Assembly (NCBI RefSeq): GCF_004010195.1
Contig: NC_057740.1
Location: 34,804,799 to 34,868,798 of the forward strand
Reading direction: 5' to 3'
DNA: 64,000 nt
From: Chiloscyllium plagiosum
Lineage: Eukaryota
Shown: in pieces, positions 1 through 63,990 of the stretch
Position numbering within the stretch: the stretch's first letter is position 1
How the letters are laid out: each line of letters opens with the position of its first letter
Notes under the pieces: model-generated
Told to the model about the DNA's origin: nothing
Database searches by the model: none
The model's input: the letters and a program-made list of their open reading frames with translations, nothing else
Position numbers and translations under genes: made by a program

Positions 1-379
1 TTCTAACTTTGAGCTTCCAACCTAGCTCCCTGAAAGCCTGTCTAACATCCTCGGCACTCCTCCTACCTATGTCGTTGTTGCCAATATGGACCACGACTTC
101 GGGCTGCTCCCCCTTCCCCTCCAGGACCCGGAAAACACGATCAGAGACATCACGTACCCTTGCACCTGGGAGGCAACATACCAATCGTGAGTCTCTCTCG
201 TTCCCACAAAACCGCCTATCTGTGCCCCTAACTATCGAGTCCCCAATTACTACTGCTCTGCTCTTCTTCACCCTTCCCTTCTGAGTAACGGGGACAGGCT
301 CCGTGCCAGAGACCTGAGCCCCATTACTTACCCCTGGTAAGTCGTCCCCCCCACAAGTATCCAAAACGGTATACTTGTT
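1..379 (-). mobile_element. CR1 LINE ORF1 fragment, SGNH/GDSL esterase domain (continues off the window edge)
   Basis: Manual minus-strand translation is open: NKYTVLDTCGGDDLPG...RAVVIGDSIVRGTDRRFCGNERDSRLVCCLPGARVRDVSDRV...EQPEVVVHIGNNDIG...; GDS, PGA and GxND blocks match CR1 ORF1 esterases. Confidence 0.9.
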
Positions 380-609
380 CTCTCCTTCGCGCTTTTAAAG
401 GGGGGAAAAAACTTACCCAGGTAAGCTTACACTAACTGCTTCTGGGTCTCGGCTGCCCCTCTGGTCGTCGTCACTTCCCCCTGGTGCTCCCGCTCTTTCT
501 GTGAAGAGAGAGTGAAAGAGAAAAAAAAACACCGCTGCCCGCTACCGGTAAGCACTTTTAAAACCAAACGGTCTTACCTTTGCTGCTGCTCGCACTGGAA
601 GTGGAGCAG
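380..609 (-). promoter_or_regulatory. CpG-rich CR1 5' leader / putative internal Pol II promoter (copy 1)
   Basis: Homologous to 21880-22106; GGAAGTGACG (ETS/CRE-like), TTTAAAAG, several GGTAAG 5' splice-site-like motifs on both strands. Confidence 0.65.
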
Positions 610-3600
610 TTTACAGGCATGTCCTGGACTGATCATTTGCAAGCACGTACTAGACTGATCATTTACAATCAGGTAACGGACGGATCGTTTACAAGCACAT
701 ACCGGACTTATCGTCAACAAGTATGTACCAGACGGATCATTTACAAGCATGTACCAGACTGATCAGTTACAAGCACATACCATACCAATCATTTACATGC
801 ACATACCGGACTGATCGTTAACATGTATGTACCGGACTGATAGTTTCCAAGTGTGTACCAGACTAATCATTTGCAAACGTGTACCGGACTGATCATTTCC
901 AAACACATATCAGACTGATCATGTACAAGCGCATACCAGACTGATAATTTCCAAACACATACCAGACTGATCGTTTACAAGCACGTACGGGACTGATCAT
1001 TTACAATCACATACCAGACTGATTATTTACAAGCACATATTGGCCTGATTGTTTACAAACAAGTACCAGACTGATCATGTACAAGCACGTACCAGACTGA
1101 TAATTTATAAACACGTACCAGACTGATCGTTTACAAGCGCGTACCAGACTGATTATTGAAAAGCACGTACCGGACTGATCATTTACAAGCACGTACGAGA
1201 CTGATCTTTTGCAAGGTCGTACGAGACTGATTGTTGACAAGCGCGTACCAGGCTGATTGTTTACAAGCACGTACCAGACTGATCATTTACAAGCGCGTAC
1301 CAGATTGATTGTTGACAAGCGCGTACCGGACTGATCATTTATAAGCACGTACCAGACTGATCATTTACAAGCACGTACGGGACTGATAATTTCCAAGCAC
1401 GTACCAGACTGATCATTTACAAGCACATAACGGTCTGATCACTTACACGCATGTACCAGACTGATTGTTTCCAAGCACGTACCAGACTGATCATTTCCAA
1501 GCGCGTACATACTGATCGTTTGCAAGCACGTACCGGACTGACCATTTACAATAACGCACCGGACTGATCGTTTACATGCACGCATGAGACTGATCATGGA
1601 CAAGCACGTACCAGATTCATCATTTACAAGCGCGTACCAGACTGATCGTTTACAAGCACGTATCAGACTGAACATTTACAAGCACGTACCAGATCGATTG
1701 TTGACAAGCACGTACCAGACTGATCATTTAATAGCACGTACCAGACTGATCATTTACAAGCACGTACCAGACTGATAGTTTACAAGCACGCACAGGACTG
1801 ATTATTTACAATCACGTACCAGACTGATTGTTTACAAGCACGCACAGGACTGATCATTTACAATCACATACCAGACTGATCGTTTACAAGCAAGCAGGGG
1901 AGTGATCATGTACAAGCACATACCGGACTGATCATTTACAAGCACGTACCAGTCTGATCATTTACAAGCATGTACCAGACTGATCATTTACAAGCACATA
2001 CCAGTCTGATCATTTACAAGCACGTACCAGACTGATCGTTTACAAGCACATACCGGACTGATCATTTACAAGCACATACCAGTCTGATCATTTACAAGCA
2101 CGTACCAGACTGATCATTTACAAGCACGTACCAGACTGATCATTTACAAGCACGTACCAGTCTGATCATTTACAAGCACGTACCAGACTGATCGTTTACA
2201 AGCACATACCGGACTGATCATTTACAAGCATGTACCAGACTGATCATTTACAAGCACGTACCAGACTGATCATTTACAAGCACGTACTGGACTGATCATT
2301 TACAAACATGTACTGGACTTACCGTTCACAAGCATGTACCAGAGTGATCATTTACAAGTTTGTACCAGACTGATCATTTACATGTACGTATCGGACTGAT
2401 CTTTTACAAGCGTGTACCAGACTGATCATTTATAAGCACATACCAGACTGATCATTTACAAGTGCGAACTAGACTGATCAGTTACAAGCACATACAGGAC
2501 TGATCATTTCCAAGCACGTGTCATACTGATCATTTACAAGCACATACCAGACTGATTGTTCACAAGCATGTACCAGTCTGATCATTTTCAAGCACGTACA
2601 TGACTGATCGTTAACAAGTACATACCACACTGATCGTTTACAAGCATGTACCGGACTGAACGTTAACAAGTACGTCCCGGATTGATAGTTTACAAGCATG
2701 TACTAGACTGATCATTTACAAGCACATACCGGATTGATCATTTACAAACATGTACCAGACTGATTGTTTCTAAGCATGTACCAGACTGATCAGTTACAAG
2801 CACATACCAGACCAAATCTTTACATGCATGTACCGGACTGAACGTTAACATGTACGCACCGGACTGATAGTTTCCAAGCGTGTACCAGACTAATCATTTG
2901 CAAACATGTACCGGACTGATCATTTACAAGCACGTACATACTGATCATTTACAAGCATGTACCGGACTGATCGATTCCAAGCGCGTACCAGACTGATCAT
3001 TTACAAGCATGTACCAGACTGATCATTTACAAGCACATATCAGACCGATCACTTAAAAACACGTATCAGACTGATCATTTACAAGCACGTACCAGACTCA
3101 TCATTTACAAGCACATACCAGGCCGATCACTTAAAAGCATGTACCGGACTGATCATTTACAAGCATGTACCAGATTGATCTTTTGCAAGGACGTATGAGA
3201 CTGATTATTGACAAGCACGTACATGACTGATCGTTAACAAGTACATACCACACTGATCGTTTACAAGCGTGTACCGGACTGAACGTTAACAAGTACGTAC
3301 CGGATTGATAGTTTCCAAGCACGTACCAGACCAATCATTTACAAACATGTACCGGAGTGATCGTTTACAAATGTGTACCAGACGGATAATTTTCAGGCAC
3401 GTGCGAGACTGATCATTTACAAGCATGTACCAGACTGATCATTTACAAGCACGTACACACTGATCATTTACAAGCATGTACTGGACTGATCGATTCCAAG
3501 CATGTACCAGACTGATCATTTACAAGCACGTACCAGCCTGATCATTTACAAGCATGTACCAGACTGATCATTTACAAGCACGTACCAGACCGATCACTTA

Positions 3601-4255
3601 AAAACACGTACCAGACTGATCATTTACAAGCACGTACCAGACTCATCATTTACAAGCACATACCAGGCCGATCACTAAAAGGCACGTACCGGACTGATCG
3701 TTTACAAGCATGTACCAGATTGATCTTTTGCAAGGACGTACGAGACTGATTATTGACAAGCACGTATCAGACTGATCATTTATAAGCACGTACCAGACTG
3801 ATCATTTCCAAGCACGTACCAGCCTGATCATTTACAAGCACGTACTGGACTGATCATTTACAAACACGTACTGGACTTACCGTTCACAAGCATGTACCAG
3901 AGTGATCATTTACAAGTTTGTACCAGACTGATCATTTACATGTACATACCGGACTGATCGTTTACAAGCATGTACCGGACTGATCTTTTACAAGCATGTA
4001 CCAGACTGATCATTTATAAGCACATACCAGACTGATCATTTACAAGTGCGTACTAGACTGATCAGTTACAAGCACGTACAGGACTGATCATTTCCAAGCA
4101 CGTACCGGACTGATCATTTACAAGCATGTACCAGACTGATCATTTACAAGCACGTACACACTGATCATTTACAAGCATGTACTGGACTAATCGATTCCAA
4201 GCATGTACCAGACTGATCATTTACAAGCACGTACCAGACCGATCACTTAAAAACA

Positions 4256-4583
4256 NNNNNNNNNNNNNNNNNNNNNNNNNNNNNNNNNNNNNNNNNNNNN
4301 NNNNNNNNNNNNNNNNNNNNNNNNNNNNNNNNNNNNNNNNNNNNNNNNNNNNNNNNNNNNNNNNNNNNNNNNNNNNNNNNNNNNNNNNNNNNNNNNNNNN
4401 NNNNNNNNNNNNNNNNNNNNNNNNNNNNNNNNNNNNNNNNNNNNNNNNNNNNNNNNNNNNNNNNNNNNNNNNNNNNNNNNNNNNNNNNNNNNNNNNNNNN
4501 NNNNNNNNNNNNNNNNNNNNNNNNNNNNNNNNNNNNNNNNNNNNNNNNNNNNNNNNNNNNNNNNNNNNNNNNNNNNNNNNNNN
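4256..4583. other. Assembly gap (N run) within the satellite
   Basis: N characters. Confidence 1.
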
Positions 4584-7500
4584 TACCGGACTGATCGTTT
4601 ACAAGCATGTACCAGATTGATCTTTTGCAAGGACGTACGAGACTGATTATTGACAAGCACGTATCAGACTGATCATTTATAAGCACATACCAGACTGATC
4701 ATTTCCAAGCACGTACCGGACTGTTCATTTACAAGCGTGTACCAGCCTGATCATTTACAAGCACGTACCAGACTGTTCATTTACAAGCACGTACCAGACT
4801 GATCATTTACAAGCATGTACTGGACTGATCATTTACAAACACGTACTGGACTTACCGTTCACAAGCATGTACCAGAGTGATCATTTACAAGTTTGTACCA
4901 GACTGATCATTTACATGTACGTACCGGACTGATCGTTTACAAGCACGTACCAGACTGATCATTTCCAAGCACGTACCGGACTGTTCATTTACAAGCACGT
5001 ACCAGACTGATCATTTACAAGCATGTACTGGACTGATCATTTACAAACACGTACTGGACTTACCGTTCACAAGCATGTACCAGAGTGATCATTTACAAGT
5101 TTGTACCAGACTGATCATTTACATGTACGTACCGGACTGATCGTTTACAAGCATGTACCAGACTGATCTTTTACAAGCATGTACCAGACTGATCATTGAT
5201 AAGCACATACCAGACTGATCATTTACAAGTGCGTACTAGACTGATCATTTCCAAGCACGTACCGGACTGATCATTTACAAGTGCGTACCAGACTGATTGT
5301 TTCCAAGCGCGTACCGGACTGATCGTTTACAAGCACGTACCGGACTTATCATCAACTAGTACATACCAGACTGATTGTTTACAAGCACATACCATACCGA
5401 TCATTTACATGCACGTACCGGACTGATCGTTAACATGTACGTACCGGACTGATAGTTTCCAAGCGTGTACCAGACTAATAATTTGCAAACAGGTACTGGA
5501 CTGATCATTTACAAACACATAACTGTCTGATTGTTTACAAGTTCATACCAGACTGATCTTTTCAAGCATGTCCCAGACTGATCATTTACAGGCACGCACC
5601 GAACTGATCGTTTACAAGCATGTACCGGACTGATCATTTCCAAGCGTGTACTATACTGATCATTTGCAAACACGTACCGGACTGACCATTTACAATCACG
5701 TATCAGACTGATCATTTACAAGCACGTACGAGACTGATCATTTACAAGCATGTTCCAGACTGTTCGTTTACAAGCGCATACATGACTGATCGTTAACAAG
5801 TACGTACCGGACTGATCGTTTCCAAGCACGTACCAGACTGATCATTTACAAACACGTACTGGAATGATCGTTTTCAAATGTGTACCAGATGGATCATTTA
5901 CAGGCACGTACCAGACTGATCATTTACAAGCGCGTACCAGACTGATTGTTGACGAACGCATACCGGACTGATTGTTTACAAACACGTGCCGGACTTATTG
6001 TCAACAAGTACGTACCAGATTGATCAGTTACAAGCACATACCACACCGATCATTTACATGCACATACTGGACTGATCATTAACATGTACGTACCGGACTG
6101 ATAGTTTCCAAGGCGTGTACCAGGCTAATCATTTGCAAACACGTACTGGACTGATCATTTAAAAACACATACCGGACTGATTGTTTACAAGCACATACCA
6201 GACTGATTGTGTACAAACACATACCAGACTGATCATTTACAAACACATACCAGACTGATCCTTAACAAGCGCATACCAGACTGATCAGTTACAACCACGT
6301 GCCAGACTGATCATTTACAATCACGTACGGGACTGATAATTTACAAGCACATATTGGACTGATCGTTTACAAACATGTACCAGACTGATCGTGTACAAGC
6401 ACATACCAGACTGATCATTTACAAACACGTACCAGACTGATCTCTTACAAGCGCATACCGACTGATTGTTGACAAGCACATACCAAACTGATCATTTCCA
6501 GACACGTACCGGACAGGTCATTTCCAGGCACGTACCAGACTGATCGTTTACAAACACGTACCGGACTGATCTCTTACAAGCGTGTACCAGACTGATCGTT
6601 TGAAAGCACATACCGGACTGACCATTTACAATCACGTACCAGACTGATCATTTACAAGCACGCACGGGACTAATCATGTACAAGCACGTACCAGACTGAT
6701 TGTTTACACGCATGTACTGGACTGATCATTTACAATCATGTACCAGACTGATTGTTTAAAAGTACGTACGGGACTGATCATTTACAATCATGTATCAGAC
6801 TGATCGTGTACAAGCACGTATGGGACTGATCATTTACAAGAACATACCAAACTGATCATTTACAAGCACGTAACGAACTGATCGTTTACAAACACACGCG
6901 GGAATGATAATTTACATGCGTGTACCAGACTGATAGTTTACAATCACGTACAGGACTGATCATTTACAATCACGTAACAGACTGATTGTTTACAAGCACG
7001 TATTGGACTGATCATTTACAAGCACATACTGGACTAATCATTTCCCGGCACGTGCCAGACTGATCATGCACAAGCACGTATGGGACTGATCATTTACAAG
7101 AATGTACCAGACTGATAATTTACAATCGTGTACTAGACTGATCGTTTACAAGCGTGTACCATACTGATCGTTTGGAAGCATGTACCGGACTGACCATTTA
7201 CAATCACGTACCAGACTGATCACTTACAAGCACGTACCAGACTGATTGGTTACAAGCATATACCGGACTGATCATTTATAAGCACGTACCAAACTGATCA
7301 TTTAAAAGCACGTATTGGACTGATCTTTTACAAGTACATACCGGACTAGTCATTTACCGGCATGTACCAGACTGATCGTTTACAATCACGTACGGGACTG
7401 ATCATTTACAAGCACGTACCAGACTGATCGTTTAAAAGCACGTATTGGATTGATCATTTACAAGCACATACCGGACTAATCATTTCCCGGCACGTGCCAG

Positions 7501-8197
7501 ACTGATCATGCACAAGCACGTATGGGACTGATCATTTACAATCACGTACCAGACTGATCGTTTGAAAGGATGTACCAGACTGATCGTGCACAAGCACTTA
7601 CCAGATTGATCATTTACAAGCACATGTGGGACTGATCGTTTACAAGCACGTACCAGACTGATCATTTACAAGCACGTACCAGACTGATCATTTTCAAGGA
7701 CGTACCAGACTGATCGTGCACAAGCGCGTACCGGACTTATCATTTACAATCATGTACCAAACAGATCATCTACAAGCACATACGGGACTGATCATTCACA
7801 AGCCTGTACCAGACTCATAGTTTATAAGCATGTACCAGACTGATCGTTTACAAGCGTGTACCAAACTCGTAGTTTACAAGCACGTACCTGACTGATCGTG
7901 CACAAGCGCATACCGGACTGATCATTTACAATCACGTAGCGGACGGATCATTTACAAGCACATACGGGACTGATCATTTACAGGCACGTACGGGCCTGAT
8001 CGTTTACAAGCACGTACCTGACTGATCGTGCACAAGCGTGTACCAGACTGATCATTTACAAGCACATACGGGACTGATCATTTACAAGCACGTACCAGAC
8101 TGATTATTTACATGCATGTACGGGACTGATCGTTTACAAGCACGTACCAGACTGATCATGCACAAGCGTGTACCAGACTGATCATTTACAAGCACGT

Positions 8198-8516
8198 GGG
8201 CGGCACGGTGGCACAGTGGTTAGCACTGCTGCCTCACAGCGCCAGAGATCCGGGTTCAATTCCCGCCTCAGGCGACTGACTGCATGGAGTTTGCACGTTC
8301 TCCCCGTGTCTGTGTGGGTTTACTCCGGGTGCTCCGGTTTCCTCCCACAGGCTAAAGATGTGCAGGTCAGGTGAATTGGCCATGCTAAATTGCCCATAGT
8401 GTTAGGTAAGGGCTAAATGTAGGGGTATGGGTGGATTGCGCTTCGGCGGGTCGGTGTGGACTTGTTGGGCCGAAGGATCTGTTTCCACACTGTAATGTAA
8501 TGTAATCTAATCTAAT
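8198..8516 (+). mobile_element. HE1-like (V-SINE) tRNA-derived SINE, young full-length copy inserted in the satellite
   Basis: A box TGGCACAGTGG, B box GGTTCAATTCC, V-domain-like GGAGTTTGCACGTTCTCCCCGTGTCTG, CR1-like tail, (TCTAA)n end; splits one monomer with GT duplicated. Confidence 0.9.
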
Positions 8517-9508
8517 GTACCGGACTGATCATTTACATGCACGTATGGGACTGATCATTTACATGCACGTACCAGACTGATCAGTTACAAACACGTACCA
8601 CACTGATCATTTACAAGCACATACCAGACTGAAAGGTTACAAACACGTACCGGACTGATCAGTTACAAACACGTACCACACTGATCATTTACAAGCACGT
8701 ACCAGACTGATTGGATACAAGCACATACCAGACTGATCGTTTCCAAGCATGTACCAGACTGATCATTTACAAGCATGTACTGGACTGATTGGTTACAAGC
8801 ACATACCAGACTGATCACTTACAATCACATACCAGACTGATTGGTTACAAGCACATACCAGACAGATCATTTGCAAGCGTGTACCGGACTGATCATTTAC
8901 AAGCTTGTACTGGACTGATCATTTACAAACACGTACCAGACTGATAATTTACAAACACGTCCTCGACTTATCGTTCACAAGCATGTACCAGACTGATCAT
9001 TTACAAGTGTGTACCAGACTGATCATTTATATGTATGTACCGGACTGATCGTTTACAAGCATGTAACGGACTGATCGTTTACAAGCGTGTACCAGACTGA
9101 TTATTTACAAACGCGTACCGGACTGATCGTTCACAAGCACATACCAGACTGATTATTTACAAACGCATATTAGACTGATCATGTCCAAGCACGTACCAGA
9201 CTGATCATTTACAAACGCGTACCGGACTGATAATTTACAAATATGTACCGGACTGGTAATTTACAAACGCTTACCGGACTGATTGTTTACAACTATGTAC
9301 CAGACTGATTGTTTACAAGCACATACCAGACTGATCCATACTAGCATGCACCTGACTGATTGTTTACAAGCATGTACCAGACTGGTACTGTTTACCTCAA
9401 GATTCAGGGGACATACATAGATCAATTGGAGAGTCTGATGTTCCTCTCCTTACAGCAGCGAACGCTATGCGCAACAAAAACAGAAATTGCAGGAGTATCT
9501 CTGTAATA

Positions 9509-21879: not shown

Positions 21880-22106
21880 AGTGCGAGCAGCAGCTGAGTT
21901 TAAACGAACTCGGAAGGCTACAGCTAAGGTGAGACAGTTTGTTTTAAAATTACTTACCAGTAGCGGGCAGCGGTGTTTGTTTTCTCTTCACAGAAAGAGC
22001 GGGAGCAGCAGGGGGAAGTGACGACGACCAGAGGGGCAGTCGGAAGCTGGTGTAGCGCAAGCTTACCTGGGTAGGTTTTTTTTCCCTATAAAAGCGCGCA
22101 GGAGAG
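21880..22106 (+). promoter_or_regulatory. CpG-rich CR1 5' leader / putative internal Pol II promoter (copy 2)
   Basis: GGAAGTGACG 22014-22023, TATAAAA 22087-22093; homologous to 380-596. Confidence 0.65.
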
Positions 22107-23745
22107 CTGTTGCAGGTTCCAGGGTTTAAATGTTTTAGTAGGGTCAGGGGTGGGGATAAAAGAGAGAGAGGTGTGGCATTGCTTGTCAAAGATAGTATTA
22201 CAGGGTGGAAAGGACGATGGATGAAGACTCGCCATCTGAGGTAGTTTGGGCTGAGGTTAGGAATAGGAAAGGAGAAGTCACCCGGTTAGGAGTTTTCTAC
22301 AGGCCTCCTAATAGTCCTAGAGATNNNNNNNNNNNNNNNNNNNNNNNNNNNNNNNNNNNNNNNNNNNNNNNNNNNNNNNNNNNNNNNNNNNNNNNNNNNN
22401 NNNNNNNNNNNNNNNNNNNNNNNNNNNNNNNNNNNNNNNNNNNNNNNNNNNNNNNNNNNNNNNNNNNNNNNNNNNNNNNNNNNNNNNNNNNNNNNNNNNN
22501 NNNNNNNNNNNNNNNNNNNNNNNNNNNNNNNNNNNNNNNNNNNNNNNNNNNNNNNNNNNNNNNNNNNNNNNNNAGTGATGGAGAGGGATAAGTGTGCACT
22601 GCAGGGCAAGAGATATAGCTGGGGGCAGGGAAATTAAGATGTGGTGAGGCACGACTTAGGATGCGTGGCTTGGAAAAGTAGGCTTCAAGGCATGGGCACA
22701 ATTGATATGTGGAGCTTGTTCGAGGAGCAACTATTTAATGTCATTGATAAGTATGTACCTGTCAGGCAGGGAGGAAAGGGTCGTGTGAGGGAGCCGAGGT
22801 TTAATCAGGAATTGGAATCCCTTGTTAAATGGAAGAGGGCGGTCTATGTAAAGATGAGGCGTGAAGGTTCAATTGGGGCGATTGAGAGTTATAAGGTAGC
22901 CAGGAAGGATCTGAAGAGAGAACTAAGAGCAGCAAGGAGGGGACATGTGAGTGTGAGGTGATTCACTTTGGTAAGAGTAACAAAAAGATGGGGTACTGGG
23001 CTAATGGTCAGATACTTGGTAGTGCGGATGAGCAGAGGGATCTTGGTGTCCATGTACACAGATCTCTGAAAGTTGCCACCCAGGTAAATAGTGCGGTAAT
23101 GAAGGCATATGGCGTACTGGCTTTTATTGGTAGAGGAATTGAGTTCCGGAATCCTGAGATCATGTTGCAGTTGTATAAGACTCTGGTGCGGCCGCATCTG
23201 GAGTATTGTGTGCGGTTTTGGTCGCCATACTATAGGAAGGATGTGGTGGCACTGGAACGGGTGCAGAGGAGGTTTAGCAAGATGTTGCCTGGTATGGTAA
23301 GAAGATCGTATGAGGAAAGGCTGAGGTACTTGGGGCTGTTTTCATTGGAGAAAAGAAGGTTTAGGGGTGACTTGATAGAGGTGTACAAGATGATTAGGGG
23401 TTTAGATAGGGTTGACCATGAGAACCTTTTACCATGTATAGAGTCAGCGATTATGCGGGGCTGTCTCTACAGCACTCTGTGGCAAGGAGTGGGCATAGCT
23501 TTAAATTAAGGGGTGGTAGGTATAGGACAGATGTTAGGGGTAGATTCTTTACTCAGCGAGTCGTGAGTTCATGGAATGCCCTGCCAGTAGCAGTAGTGGA
23601 CTCTCCCTCTTTATGGGCATTTAAACGGGCATTGGATAGGCATATGGAGGATAGTGGGCTAGTGTAGGTTAGTTGGGCTTGGATCGGCGCAACATCGAGT
23701 GCCATAGGGCCTGTACTGCGCTGTATTTTTCTATGTTCTATGTTC
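22107..23745 (+). mobile_element. Internally deleted CR1 LINE: ORF2 endonuclease part, linker, ORF2 C-terminus, 3' UTR
   Basis: LLQVPGFKCFSRVRGGDKRERGVALLVKD, GVFYRPP (APE endonuclease); jump at ~22947 from AARRGH to CEVIHFGKSN skipping the RT core; LYKTLVRPHLEYC; (CTATGTT)n tail. Confidence 0.9.
22325..22573. other. Assembly gap
   Basis: N characters. Confidence 1.
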
Positions 23746-24167: not shown

Positions 24168-24810
24168 GAACATAGAACATAAAACATTCCAGCGCAGTTC
24201 AGGCCCTTCGGCCCTCGATGTTGCACCAACCTTTGGAACAATCTGAAGCCCATCTAACCTACACCATTCCATTTTTATCCATATATTTATCCAATGGCCA
24301 TTTAAATGCTCTTAAAGTTGACGAATCCACTACTGTTGCAGGGAGTGCATTCCATGTCCCTACTACTCTCTGAATAAAGAAACTCCCTCTGACATCTGTC
24401 CTATATCTATCATCACTCAATCTAAAGCTATGTCCTCTCATGCTAGCCAACGCCATCCGAGGAAAAAGGCTCTCACTGTCCTCTCTATCTAACTCTCTGA
24501 TTATCTTATATGTCTCAATTAAGTCACCTCTCAACCTTCTTCTCTCTAATGAAAACAGCCTCAAGTCCCTCACCCTTTCCTCGTAAGACCTTCCTTCCAT
24601 ACTGGCAACATCCTAGTAAATCTCCTCTGAACCCTTTCCAAAGCTTCCACATCCTTCCTATAATGTGGTGACCAGAACTGTAGACAATACTCCAAATGCA
24701 GCCGCACCAGAGTTTTGTATAGCTTCAGCATGACCTCATGGTTCCAAAACTCAACCCCACTCCCAATAAAAGCTAACACTCCATATGCCTTCTTAACAAC
24801 TCTATTAATC
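24168..24810 (-). mobile_element. CR1 3' fragment (same tail type as 22107-23745)
   Basis: VVKKAYGVLAFI, LYKTLVRLHLEYC, RRRLRGDLIETYK; (AGAACAT)n antisense tail. Confidence 0.9.
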
Positions 24811-24944
24811 ATGTTCATCTCCTACCAGAAGAGTAGTCACATAACTCAATAATACTGCAGCTGTTGACTATAATCATAACAATCAATCCTTATAAATTAG
24901 TTGACATCAACCTTAAATACGTTGTTTCATCTTTTAATTATTCA

Positions 24945-26971: not shown

Positions 26972-27877
26972 AGTCATATAGTTATAGAGATGTACAGCAC
27001 GGAAACAGACCTTTCAGTCCAACCTGACCATGCCAACCAGATATCTCAACCTGATCTATGTCCCACCTGCCAGCACCTGGCCCATATCCCTTCAAACCCT
27101 TCCTATTCATACACCCATCCAAATGCCTCTTAAGTGTTGCAGTTGTACCAGCCTCCACCACTTCCTCTGGCAGCTCATTCCCTACACCATCTGTGTGAAA
27201 AAATTGCCCCTTAGGTCTCTTTTATATCTTTCCCCTCTCACTCTAAACCTATGCCCTCTAGTTCTGGATTCCCCCAACCTAGGGAAAAGATTTTGTCTAT
27301 TTATCCTATCCATGCCCCTCATAATTCTGTAAACCTCTATAAGGTCACCCCCTCAGCCTCCGACACTCCAGGGAAAACAGCCCCAGCCTGTTCAGCCTCA
27401 GCCACAGTTCAAATCCTCCAACCCAGGCAACATCCTTGTAAATCTTTTCTGAACCTGCTCAGATTTGCTTTCCCAAAATGCAGCATCTCGCATTTATCTG
27501 AATTAAACTCCATCCGCCACTTCTCAGCTCATTGGCCCGTCCGGTCAAGATCCTGTTGTAATCTGAGGTAACCCTCTTCACTGTCCACTACACCTCCAAT
27601 TTTGGTGCCATCTGCAAACTTACTAACTGTACCTCTTATGCTCGCGTCTAAATCATTTATGTAAATGACAAAAAGTAGAGGACGCAGCACCGATCCTTGT
27701 GGCACTCCACTGGTCACAGGCCTCCAGTCTGAAAAACAACCCTCCCCCACTACCTTTGAGCCAGATCTGTATCCAAATGGCTAGTTCTCCCTTTATTCCA
27801 TGAGATCTAACTTTGCTAACCAGTCTCCCACGGGGAACCTTGTCGAATGCCTTACTGAAGTCCATATAGATCACATC
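26972..27877 (-). mobile_element. CR1 RT and 3' fragment with internal deletions
   Basis: IYMDFSKAFDKVP, SGVPQGSVL, KFADGTK. Confidence 0.9.
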
Positions 27878-62909: not shown

Positions 62910-63564
62910 TTGCAAGGTTTGTGAAGGTTTGTAGCTCAGGTTGAGATTTAGGGTGTAGGTTTGCTCGCTGAGCTGTAGGTTTGATATCCAGATGTTTCAT
63001 TACCTGGCTAGGTGACATCATCAGTGGCGACCTCCAAGTGAAGCGAAGCTGTTGTCTCCTGCTTTCTATTTCGATCTTTCTCCTGGATGGGGTTCCTGGG
63101 GTTTGTGGTGATGTCATTTCCTGTTCGTTTTCTGAGGGGTTGATAGATGGCATCTAGATCTATGTGCTTGTTTGTGGCGCTGTGGTTGGAGTGCCAGGCC
63201 TCTAGGAATTCTCTGGCATGTCTTTGCTTAGCCTGTCCCAGGATAAATGTGGGACTGGGACAACATATCTATCCTGGGACAGGCTAAGCAAAGACATGCT
63301 AGAGAATTCCTAGAGGCCTGGCACTCCAACCACAACGCCATAAACAAACACATAGATCTAGATGCCATCTATCAACCCCTCAGAAAATGAACAGGAAATG
63401 ACATCACCACAAACCCCAGGAACCCCATCCAGGAGAAAGATATAAAGAGAAAGCAGGAGACAACAGCTTCGCTTCACTTGGAGGTCACCACTGATGATGT
63501 TACCTAGCCAGGTAATGAAACGTCTGGATATCAAACCTACAGCTCAGCGAGCAAACCTACACCC
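62910..63564. mobile_element. Penelope/Poseidon-type insertion forming a ~300-bp-arm inverted repeat with 15-bp TSD
   Basis: Plus arm encodes WDWDNISILGQAKQRHAREFLEAWHSNHNAINKHIDLDAIYQPL (GIY-YIG C-terminus); TSD TAGATTCTATGGTTT at 62895-62909 and 63565-63579. Confidence 0.92.
63488..63527 (+). ncRNA. Minimal type I hammerhead ribozyme motif
   Basis: CCA-CUGAUGA-U-GUUACC(UAGCCA)GGUAAU-GAAAC-GUC-UGG; stems I and II pair. Confidence 0.75.
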
Positions 63565-63621
63565 TAGATTCTATGGTTTCTGATTAGATCAACAAACTGT
63601 GATCAACTCGATGAGGTGGAC

Positions 63622-63990
63622 AAAAGCAAATTACGGCGGATGCTAGAATCTGAAACCAAAAGAGAAAAAGCTGGAAAATCTCAGCAGGTCTGGTAGCATC
63701 TGTAAGGAGAGAAAAGGGCTAACGTTTCAAGTCTAACTGACCCTTTTGTCAAAGCTCCTGAGAGAGAAAAGGAAAGCAGTGAAGGTGGACAGGGGGAGAG
63801 AAACAAACCGGAAATCCTGTCGGAGAGAAGAGCTGTACTTCTTCAGGGTAGGTATTCCTGGAAGAGAGGTGGCAGTGGGTTAAACACTGGGTACAAGCTT
63901 TGACAAAGGGTCAGTTAGACTCGAAACGTCAGCTCTTTTCTCTCCTTACAGATGCTGCCAGACCTGCTGAGATTTTCCAGCATTTTCTCT
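63622..63990. mobile_element. Penelope-derived element with ~95-bp inverted arms (63661-63755 / 63896-63990)
   Basis: Arms are reverse complements; ~140-bp spacer. Confidence 0.85.
63896..63934 (+). ncRNA. Hammerhead ribozyme motif with U3-A8 core variant
   Basis: AGCU-UUGACAA-A-GGGUC(AGUUA)GACUC-GAAAC-GUC-AGCU. Confidence 0.65.

Follow-up and report, generated by a model that had tools for sequence, protein, structure and literature searches.

CR1-group elements make up 22–34% of shark and ray genomes (PMC13343379). The canonical chondrichthyan CR1 described in the same source (Stuart et al. 2026; RhiTyp_CR1-8, -11, -7 and -2a, SquAca_CR1-7 and ScyCan_CR1-11a) feature, like the elements analysed here, an SGNH ORF1, an APE-RT ORF2 and a 5′ UTR in which donor, T-run, TTTAAAA and CTTACC units are followed by a TATA-like box. 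Unlike them, the two leader-bearing copies found in the window (the whole 64,000-nt stretch of DNA under analysis) lack a hairpin module and the start of ORF1, and copy 2 also lacks the RT. The words "deletion" and "non-autonomous" have no matches in the main text of that paper.

Internal deletion linked to microhomology is known for non-LTR elements (PMC2861651, PMC6740152). SIDEs and bipartite LINEs, such as Persaeus derived from the CR1 element Zenon (PMC6740152), the SIDEs of R2 (PMC3414825), RIME and Bov-A (PMC5786205), keep both ends, have lost the middle and show short repeats at the breakpoints; Persaeus has been proposed to arise repeatedly at a structural hot spot (PMC6740152). However, these are amplified and nearly ORF-free families, whereas in the window each junction is single-copy, long pieces of ORF are preserved and about 0.9 kb separates the two right ends. 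Hebe of Adineta vaga also has 5′-complete copies inactivated by microhomology-linked internal deletions, but those are 12–200 bp long and scattered (PMC2861651), while the deletions of the window span 0.4–1.3 kb and two of them have a common left end. L1 SpIREs (PMC5860796) are similar in their fixed 5′ UTR break, differing downstream joins and removal of promoter sequence; they use GT-AG, whereas junction 2 in the window has no acceptor and the introns upstream of it are retained. In U6/L1 chimeras, a 5′ partner with a fixed 3′ end is attached to a variably truncated LINE body (PMC6789731; fixed-left chimeras of this kind also in PMC11838501), but that partner is a small RNA, and here it is the element's own UTR, without an Rfam match. 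No report of a fixed deletion point or of the module in shark CR1 was found in the literature searched, with most subscription journals and Repbase lying outside the search. Against the known cases of internal deletion in non-LTR elements, the shared left end is a modest twist.

Both copies in the window are headed by the same leader (Table 1). The alignment of the copy 2 leader to the copy 1 leader with blastn extended over 208 columns with an E-value of 2e-49, and the global alignment contains 177 matches and 18 mismatches (90.8% identity in ungapped columns) with indels of 30, 13, 7, 2, 1 and 1 nt, in agreement with the first-pass annotation of this DNA, which had described the two as homologous yet diverged. 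It had also placed the leader starts within some 15 bp of each other. Instead, an identical 15-mer is present at both starts, and the apparent offset is due to the 30-nt indel between CAG repeats. The CpG observed/expected ratio is 0.78 for the copy 1 leader and 0.88 for the copy 2 leader, against 0.27 in the window beyond position 9400, and 9 of the 12 aligned CpGs are common to both. Most CpGs are kept in both leaders, which are therefore young. No third copy of the leader was found within the 64-kb window (nhmmer --max), and no leader stands in front of the remaining CR1 ORF2 pieces of the window.

Table 1. Coordinates of the two leader-bearing CR1 copies, their junctions and a control fragment in the window.
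Feature	Position	Strand	Remarks
Copy 1 leader	380..596	-	217 nt; 12 nt from the 26-bp satellite array
GT...AG intron-like unit, retained, copy 1 leader	577-499	-	79 nt
Second donor-like site, copy 1	416	-	37 nt before junction
TATA-like box, copy 1	399-392	-	Starts 20 nt before junction
Junction 1	380/379	-	Estimated loss ~420-450 nt
Copy 1 body, SGNH-esterase ORF1 from codon 100 on	1..379	-	Reaches window edge, open
Copy 2 leader, CR1 5′ UTR front	21880..22106	+	227 nt, CpG obs/exp 0.88
GT...AG intron-like unit, retained, copy 2 leader	21929..21993	+	65 nt
Second donor-like site, unused, copy 2	22071..22076	+	36 nt before junction
TATA-like box, copy 2	22087..22094	+	Starts 20 nt before junction
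Junction 2, leader to ORF2 endonuclease	22106..22107	+	Deleted side ends with Q-E-W codons
ORF2 endonuclease and linker, P0055 aa 64-359	22107..22946	+	One frameshift, one stop
249-N assembly gap in copy 2	22325-22573		297 nt expected there
Junction 3, second deletion in copy 2	22946..22949	+	355 codons (1065 nt), imprecise join
ORF2 C-terminus, 3′ UTR, short CTATGTT tail	22949..23744	+	
Control: unrelated CR1 3′ fragment	27081..27877	-	Own internal deletion of ~91 codons at 27460-27463

The leaders were compared with the shark CR1 consensuses of supplementary table 2 of PMC13343379, using the first 400 letters of each row; 16 whale shark and 23 catshark CR1 rows were read by eye, and other species were covered through motif searches. 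The exact leader does not occur in these parts of the rows. By eye, a donor and a T-run are followed by TATAAAAGTCTTACTGG in RhiTyp_CR1-11 and by TTTAAAAGTGCTTACCGG in copy 1, GACCAGGGGGCTGCCG in RhiTyp_CR1-7 corresponds to GACCAGAGGGGCAGCCG in the leader, and the order of CTGGGTAGGT, T-run and TATA-like box is the same in SquAca_CR1-7 and copy 2. Protein relatives point in the same direction: P0002, 81% identical to the copy 1 ORF1, agrees with the ORF1 start of RhiTyp_CR1-8 at 41 of 41 residues, and P0001 with that of SquAca_CR1-7 at 14 of 20 (both by eye). Judged by these similarities, the leader represents the front part of the 5′ UTR of a CR1 from cartilaginous fish. An independent element or a SINE head was considered and rejected, as the leader occurs only before CR1 bodies (two of two) and resembles the UTRs of CR1 consensuses.

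Searches elsewhere were negative. A pattern scan of GTDB for the leader DNA gave 0 matches and one for ORF1 gave 78, none of which was confirmed; neither the leader nor its continuation was found in plasmid and phage collections, and six motifs gave only two unrelated papers in the full-text literature. The antisense frame of the leader, compared with predicted proteins to recover the continuation, had a single spurious repeat match. Rfam yielded no match to the leader at the gathering score and chance-level matches in E-value mode.

GGAGAG is the 3′ end of both leaders, and in each copy the CR1 body, as delimited by homology, directly abuts it, although overlap between the two sides blurs the exact position of the break at both junctions. 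The pairing of a constant left end with a right end that varies, reported in the first-pass annotation, is borne out: GGAGAG leads to ORF1 in copy 1 and to the ORF2 endonuclease in copy 2. Re-entry in copy 1 is in the middle of ORF1, as had been stated, at N100 of P0001 and 45 codons before G-D-S, and the reading frame is open for 126 codons after the junction; the 3′ end of this copy lies beyond the window. P0001 is the closest relative of the ORF1 fragment (87% identity). The fragment by itself has no Pfam match, and its assignment to the esterase (SGNH/GDSL) type of ORF1, typical of canonical CR1, comes via P0001, which carries PF13472 above the cut-off. In total, 40 relatives were identified among 429 candidates, and the named ones belong to sharks and rays, save one record labelled bacterial. 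Three proteins, P0011, P0045 and P0060, are shark- or ray-type CR1 proteins on short contigs under bacterial NCBI names (Pseudomonas, Aeromonas, Carnobacterium) and are probably the result of host DNA contamination.

The entry of copy 2 into the ORF2 endonuclease was also located correctly; it corresponds to L64 of P0055, a relative of 942 aa with Pfam domains PF03372 (endonuclease) and PF00078 (RT). The loss at junction 2 would amount to about 1.3 kb and comprise the rest of the UTR, ORF1 and the start of ORF2. Copy 2 covers residues 64–136 of P0055, the N gap, residues 236–359 and residues 715–942. The pieces are collinear with P0055 and 65–80% identical to it, which places them in an ORF2 of the APE endonuclease plus RT type, with the RT part itself deleted. 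A second large deletion, overlooked before, takes most of the RT domain at junction 3, including the catalytic FADD motif. The CTATGTT repeats at the 3′ end, common to the neighbouring copy at 24168, form a microsatellite tail of the CR1 type. With the 5′ and 3′ ends kept and the middle deleted, copy 2 has the structure of a SIDE or bipartite element.

Copy 2 also contains a 29-nt insertion at 23462–23490, between GGGC repeats, for which no source was found within the window. No convincing target-site duplication of this copy was detected: the only match, of 5 nt and 8 nt off the 5′ end, is at the chance level. The search with the ORF2 linker gave 0 of 274 candidates, and the Atlas search gave unnamed clusters only. 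A related 5′-truncated CR1 (24168–24815, minus strand, about 73% identical) stands tail to tail with copy 2 at a distance of about 420 bp.

A module of about 50 nt is present in eight of the consensus rows (RhiTyp_CR1-2a, -7, -8 and -11, ScyCan_CR1-7a, -11a and -16 and SquAca_CR1-7), again in the first 400 letters (PMC13343379). Read by eye, it consists of CCC(G/T)A, a hairpin of 6–10 bp and a C/T-rich tract ending with CT(A/G)ACC. The loop of the hairpin is variable, and in two catshark rows the stem is changed on both sides. The module is kept across dogfish, catshark and whale shark CR1 5′ UTRs while the flanks vary. It is followed by a donor, and the ORF1 ATG is located about 115–135 nt past the module start (by count or estimate in three rows); on the upstream side, the nearest donor precedes the module by 25–47 nt (five rows counted by eye). 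In six of the eight rows the module starts 21–24 nt after the TATA-like box by eye, and in the other two the box is absent. For comparison, the junctions of both window copies are situated 20 nt after the TATA-like box and 36–37 nt after the donor.

The window does not contain the module, whose presence and position in the window's own family are deduced from the relatives. The end of the module, CT(A/G)AC, is similar to a branch-point consensus. Going by the relatives, both deletions probably start a few nucleotides before the module, at its foot. A structure-defined break, one of several routes suggested in the first-pass annotation, fits this arrangement in so far as the conserved hairpin module of related shark CR1 begins where the junction falls. 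The accompanying idea that an intact promoter is restored to truncated copies is not supported. Of the UTR beyond the leader, the deletion takes an estimated 120–150 nt, among them the best-conserved stretch, and the loss of the module from both copies argues against such a restoration. In L1, 5′ UTR deletions produced by splicing reduce promoter activity (PMC5860796).

Microhomology at the joins was assessed against a background of 1398 positions drawn from CR1 coding DNA of the window itself. The exact overlap at junction 1 is 0–2 nt; the value of 2 nt needs an AAG codon and is reached at 11% of the background positions. At junction 2 the overlap is 1 nt if exact and up to about 9 nt if imperfect. 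The exact overlaps at these two junctions are unremarkable. With G-Q-E-W upstream of junction 2 and an offset of up to 3 nt allowed, a near-match of at least 6 nt to the leader end has a probability of 0.59, against 0.003 in the background, a value deduced from the residues of relatives and not from the codons of the deleted side. One stingray consensus row has G CAG GAA TGG at this place. Leader letters, not body letters, survive across the junction 2 overlap, as would be expected for a nascent plus strand re-annealed on cDNA. The surroundings of junction 3 read H|E-K and A-E-K|C in P0055, with E-K on both sides, and the chance of identical E-K codons at both flanks is about 0.33. The control CR1 fragment shows a short overlap at its own join at 27460. 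Microhomology and extra bases are routine at LINE 5′ joins (PMC4245944).

As the left end is fixed and the right ends are about 0.44 and 1.3 kb off, a fixed 3′ end seems to have been rejoined downstream. Our preferred reading, to which we assign a probability of roughly 0.45, is that these are 5′-complete, internally deleted CR1 copies which arose from a plus-strand stall at the hairpin and downstream rejoining. In the intact element, to judge from the relatives, the leader would be followed within a few nucleotides by the conserved hairpin module. The plus strand would be made on single-stranded cDNA during integration, or in later repair or replication, and the polymerase would stall at the foot of the hairpin, with both the stall and its timing being presumed. 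The nascent 3′ end ...GGAGAG would then re-anneal far downstream via 1–2 nt of microhomology or an imperfect 6–7 nt one. The expected outcome is a single left break with differing right re-entry points, the module and the beginning of ORF1 being lost; copy 2 would have slipped once more, across the RT.

The plus-strand stall is favoured because it also covers junction 3 and the leader letters kept at junction 2. Further arguments for it are the distance between the TATA-like box and the module start in most rows, which is close to that between the box and the window junctions, and the internal deletion with a short overlap in an unrelated third CR1 copy. On the other side, the number of copies is two, the overlap at junction 1 is at most 2 nt, the 12-nt stretch from the TATA-like box to the junction is unlike the relatives, and two of the eight rows have no such box. 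A hairpin of 7–10 bp is a modest obstacle to a strand-displacing enzyme, which also counts against a stall.

An RNA end is an unlikely source of the fixed break. Here the leader RNA would be cut or ended at the module boundary (by self-cleavage, a nuclease or termination) and then ligated to truncated CR1 RNA, or the RT would jump onto it end to end, in the manner of U6/L1 chimeras or R2 jumps. The sharp left end, the 0–2 nt of exact overlap and the variable right ends repeat the U6/L1 pattern (PMC6789731), and the module is situated wholly 3′ of the break, like the R2 5′ ribozymes (PMC3414825). The RhiTyp_CR1-2b row begins at the module, although this is a weak point given the low-confidence letters of the row (PMC13343379). 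Ligation, however, requires no homology, yet a 6–7 nt near-match is likely at junction 2; junction 3 is left unexplained, and copies starting at the module are absent within the window. By eye, the module could not be fitted to HDV-like, hammerhead or twister layouts, which counts against an RNA end as well. The more specific version, where the module itself acts as an RNA element for self-cleavage or processing and divides the CR1 RNA into a leader of about 225 nt and a body, the leader being re-attached, sometimes to truncated bodies, is considerably more doubtful. If it is true, vertebrate CR1 would have an RNA element not described so far, and the process would parallel in cis the way in which U6/L1 chimeras form.

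Slightly less likely than an RNA end is a coincidence, in which two ordinary microhomology deletions arose independently and happen to start close together in a purine-rich tract, with no special route. In its favour, internal deletions are frequent in this DNA (junction 3 and the copy at 27460), overlap at junction 2 spreads the possible break over about 9 nt, and the match was singled out post hoc. Against it, a uniform model, also post hoc and varying with the range and the size of interval chosen, gives two independent left breaks a chance of about 0.3–3% of landing within 2–9 nt of each other. Two of the two leader-bearing copies of the window break at GGAGAG, and the spot corresponds to a structural boundary in the relatives.

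Shared ancestry is improbable. It supposes that one deletion gave rise to a non-autonomous master, and that copy 2 was formed via a further deletion to about the same point. The leaders are only 9% apart and keep the CpGs noted above, copy 2 retains the 3′ end that mobilisation in trans requires, and bipartite CR1 derivatives do exist (PMC6740152). Nevertheless, the second deletion must still hit the first junction, neither junction is seen twice in the window, and indels of 30, 13 and 7 nt separate the leaders.

A short-read assembly artefact, with contigs joined over a collapsed repeat, is very improbable. There are three N gaps in the window, one of them 218 nt from junction 2, but none of the junctions contains Ns, and differences between the leaders occur as close as 8 nt ahead of the junction. 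Besides, the length of the 249-N gap is near the 297 nt missing, so the scaffold distance would conceal no further 2.4 kb.

The splice-donor route proposed in the first-pass annotation could not be upheld. No AG is found before the junction 2 entry. Of 26 endonuclease relatives with a matchable motif, 24 have Trp at this place (other matches, without the pattern, were left out), and Q-E-W is read there in all three closest relatives; as TGG is the only Trp codon, there is no AG acceptor ahead of junction 2. A better CAG acceptor 9 nt downstream of the junction is unused. The residue preceding junction 1 is Lys in the closest relative, in which case AAG is possible (about 68% by the codon usage of the window), and Ser or Asn in most others. 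The deleted part at junction 3 opens with Glu in all five relatives aligned that far, i.e., with GA and not GT. No consensus donor was seen by eye at the place matching the GGAGAG junction in six anchorable rows, which are relatives and not the window's own family. Splicing is unlikely on this evidence, and spliced retrocopies similar to L1 SpIREs, in which a donor following GGAGAG would have been spliced to acceptors within ORF1 and ORF2, are hardly credible: the possible AAG acceptor at junction 1 and the abundance of donors in shark CR1 UTRs are outweighed by TGG before junction 2 and the ignored CAG, the prevalence of Ser or Asn before junction 1, the mini-intron and second donor kept in both copies and the GA start at junction 3.

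Donor-like sites are located on both strands of the leaders (21929, 21957, 22066 and 22071; 577, 548, 421 and 416). The copy 1 leader has four and the copy 2 leader three sites scoring at least 7 of 9, versus 1.1 expected per 227 bp, and a complementary CTTACC is found near each sense donor. Donors on both strands could reflect an antisense promoter or masking in cis. Masking of donors in cis was not adopted as a reading, as the leaders fold differently and donor 1 is paired with the complementary CTTACC in copy 2 only.

Promoterless bipartite derivatives are described as arising from very few LINE clades, for unknown reasons (PMC5786205). If true, a deletion hot spot fixed in position at a conserved 5′ UTR structure would provide such derivatives with a concrete and countable route, and the hot spot would point to a module common to dogfish, catshark and whale shark CR1. 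If the common break is a coincidence, the two copies are ordinary dead ones.

The window contains several other repeats. A 26-bp satellite array with copies about 77–80% alike occupies positions 609–9395, begins 12 nt upstream of the copy 1 5′ end and is interrupted near 8200–8515 by a dispersed repeat. At the opposite end, a near-perfect 624-bp palindrome (62946–63569) features 306-nt arms, 95% identical, and a 12-nt spacer. It is followed at a distance of 90 bp by an element with 86-nt inverted ends (63661–63990), and the two are possibly of a foldback or MITE-like nature.
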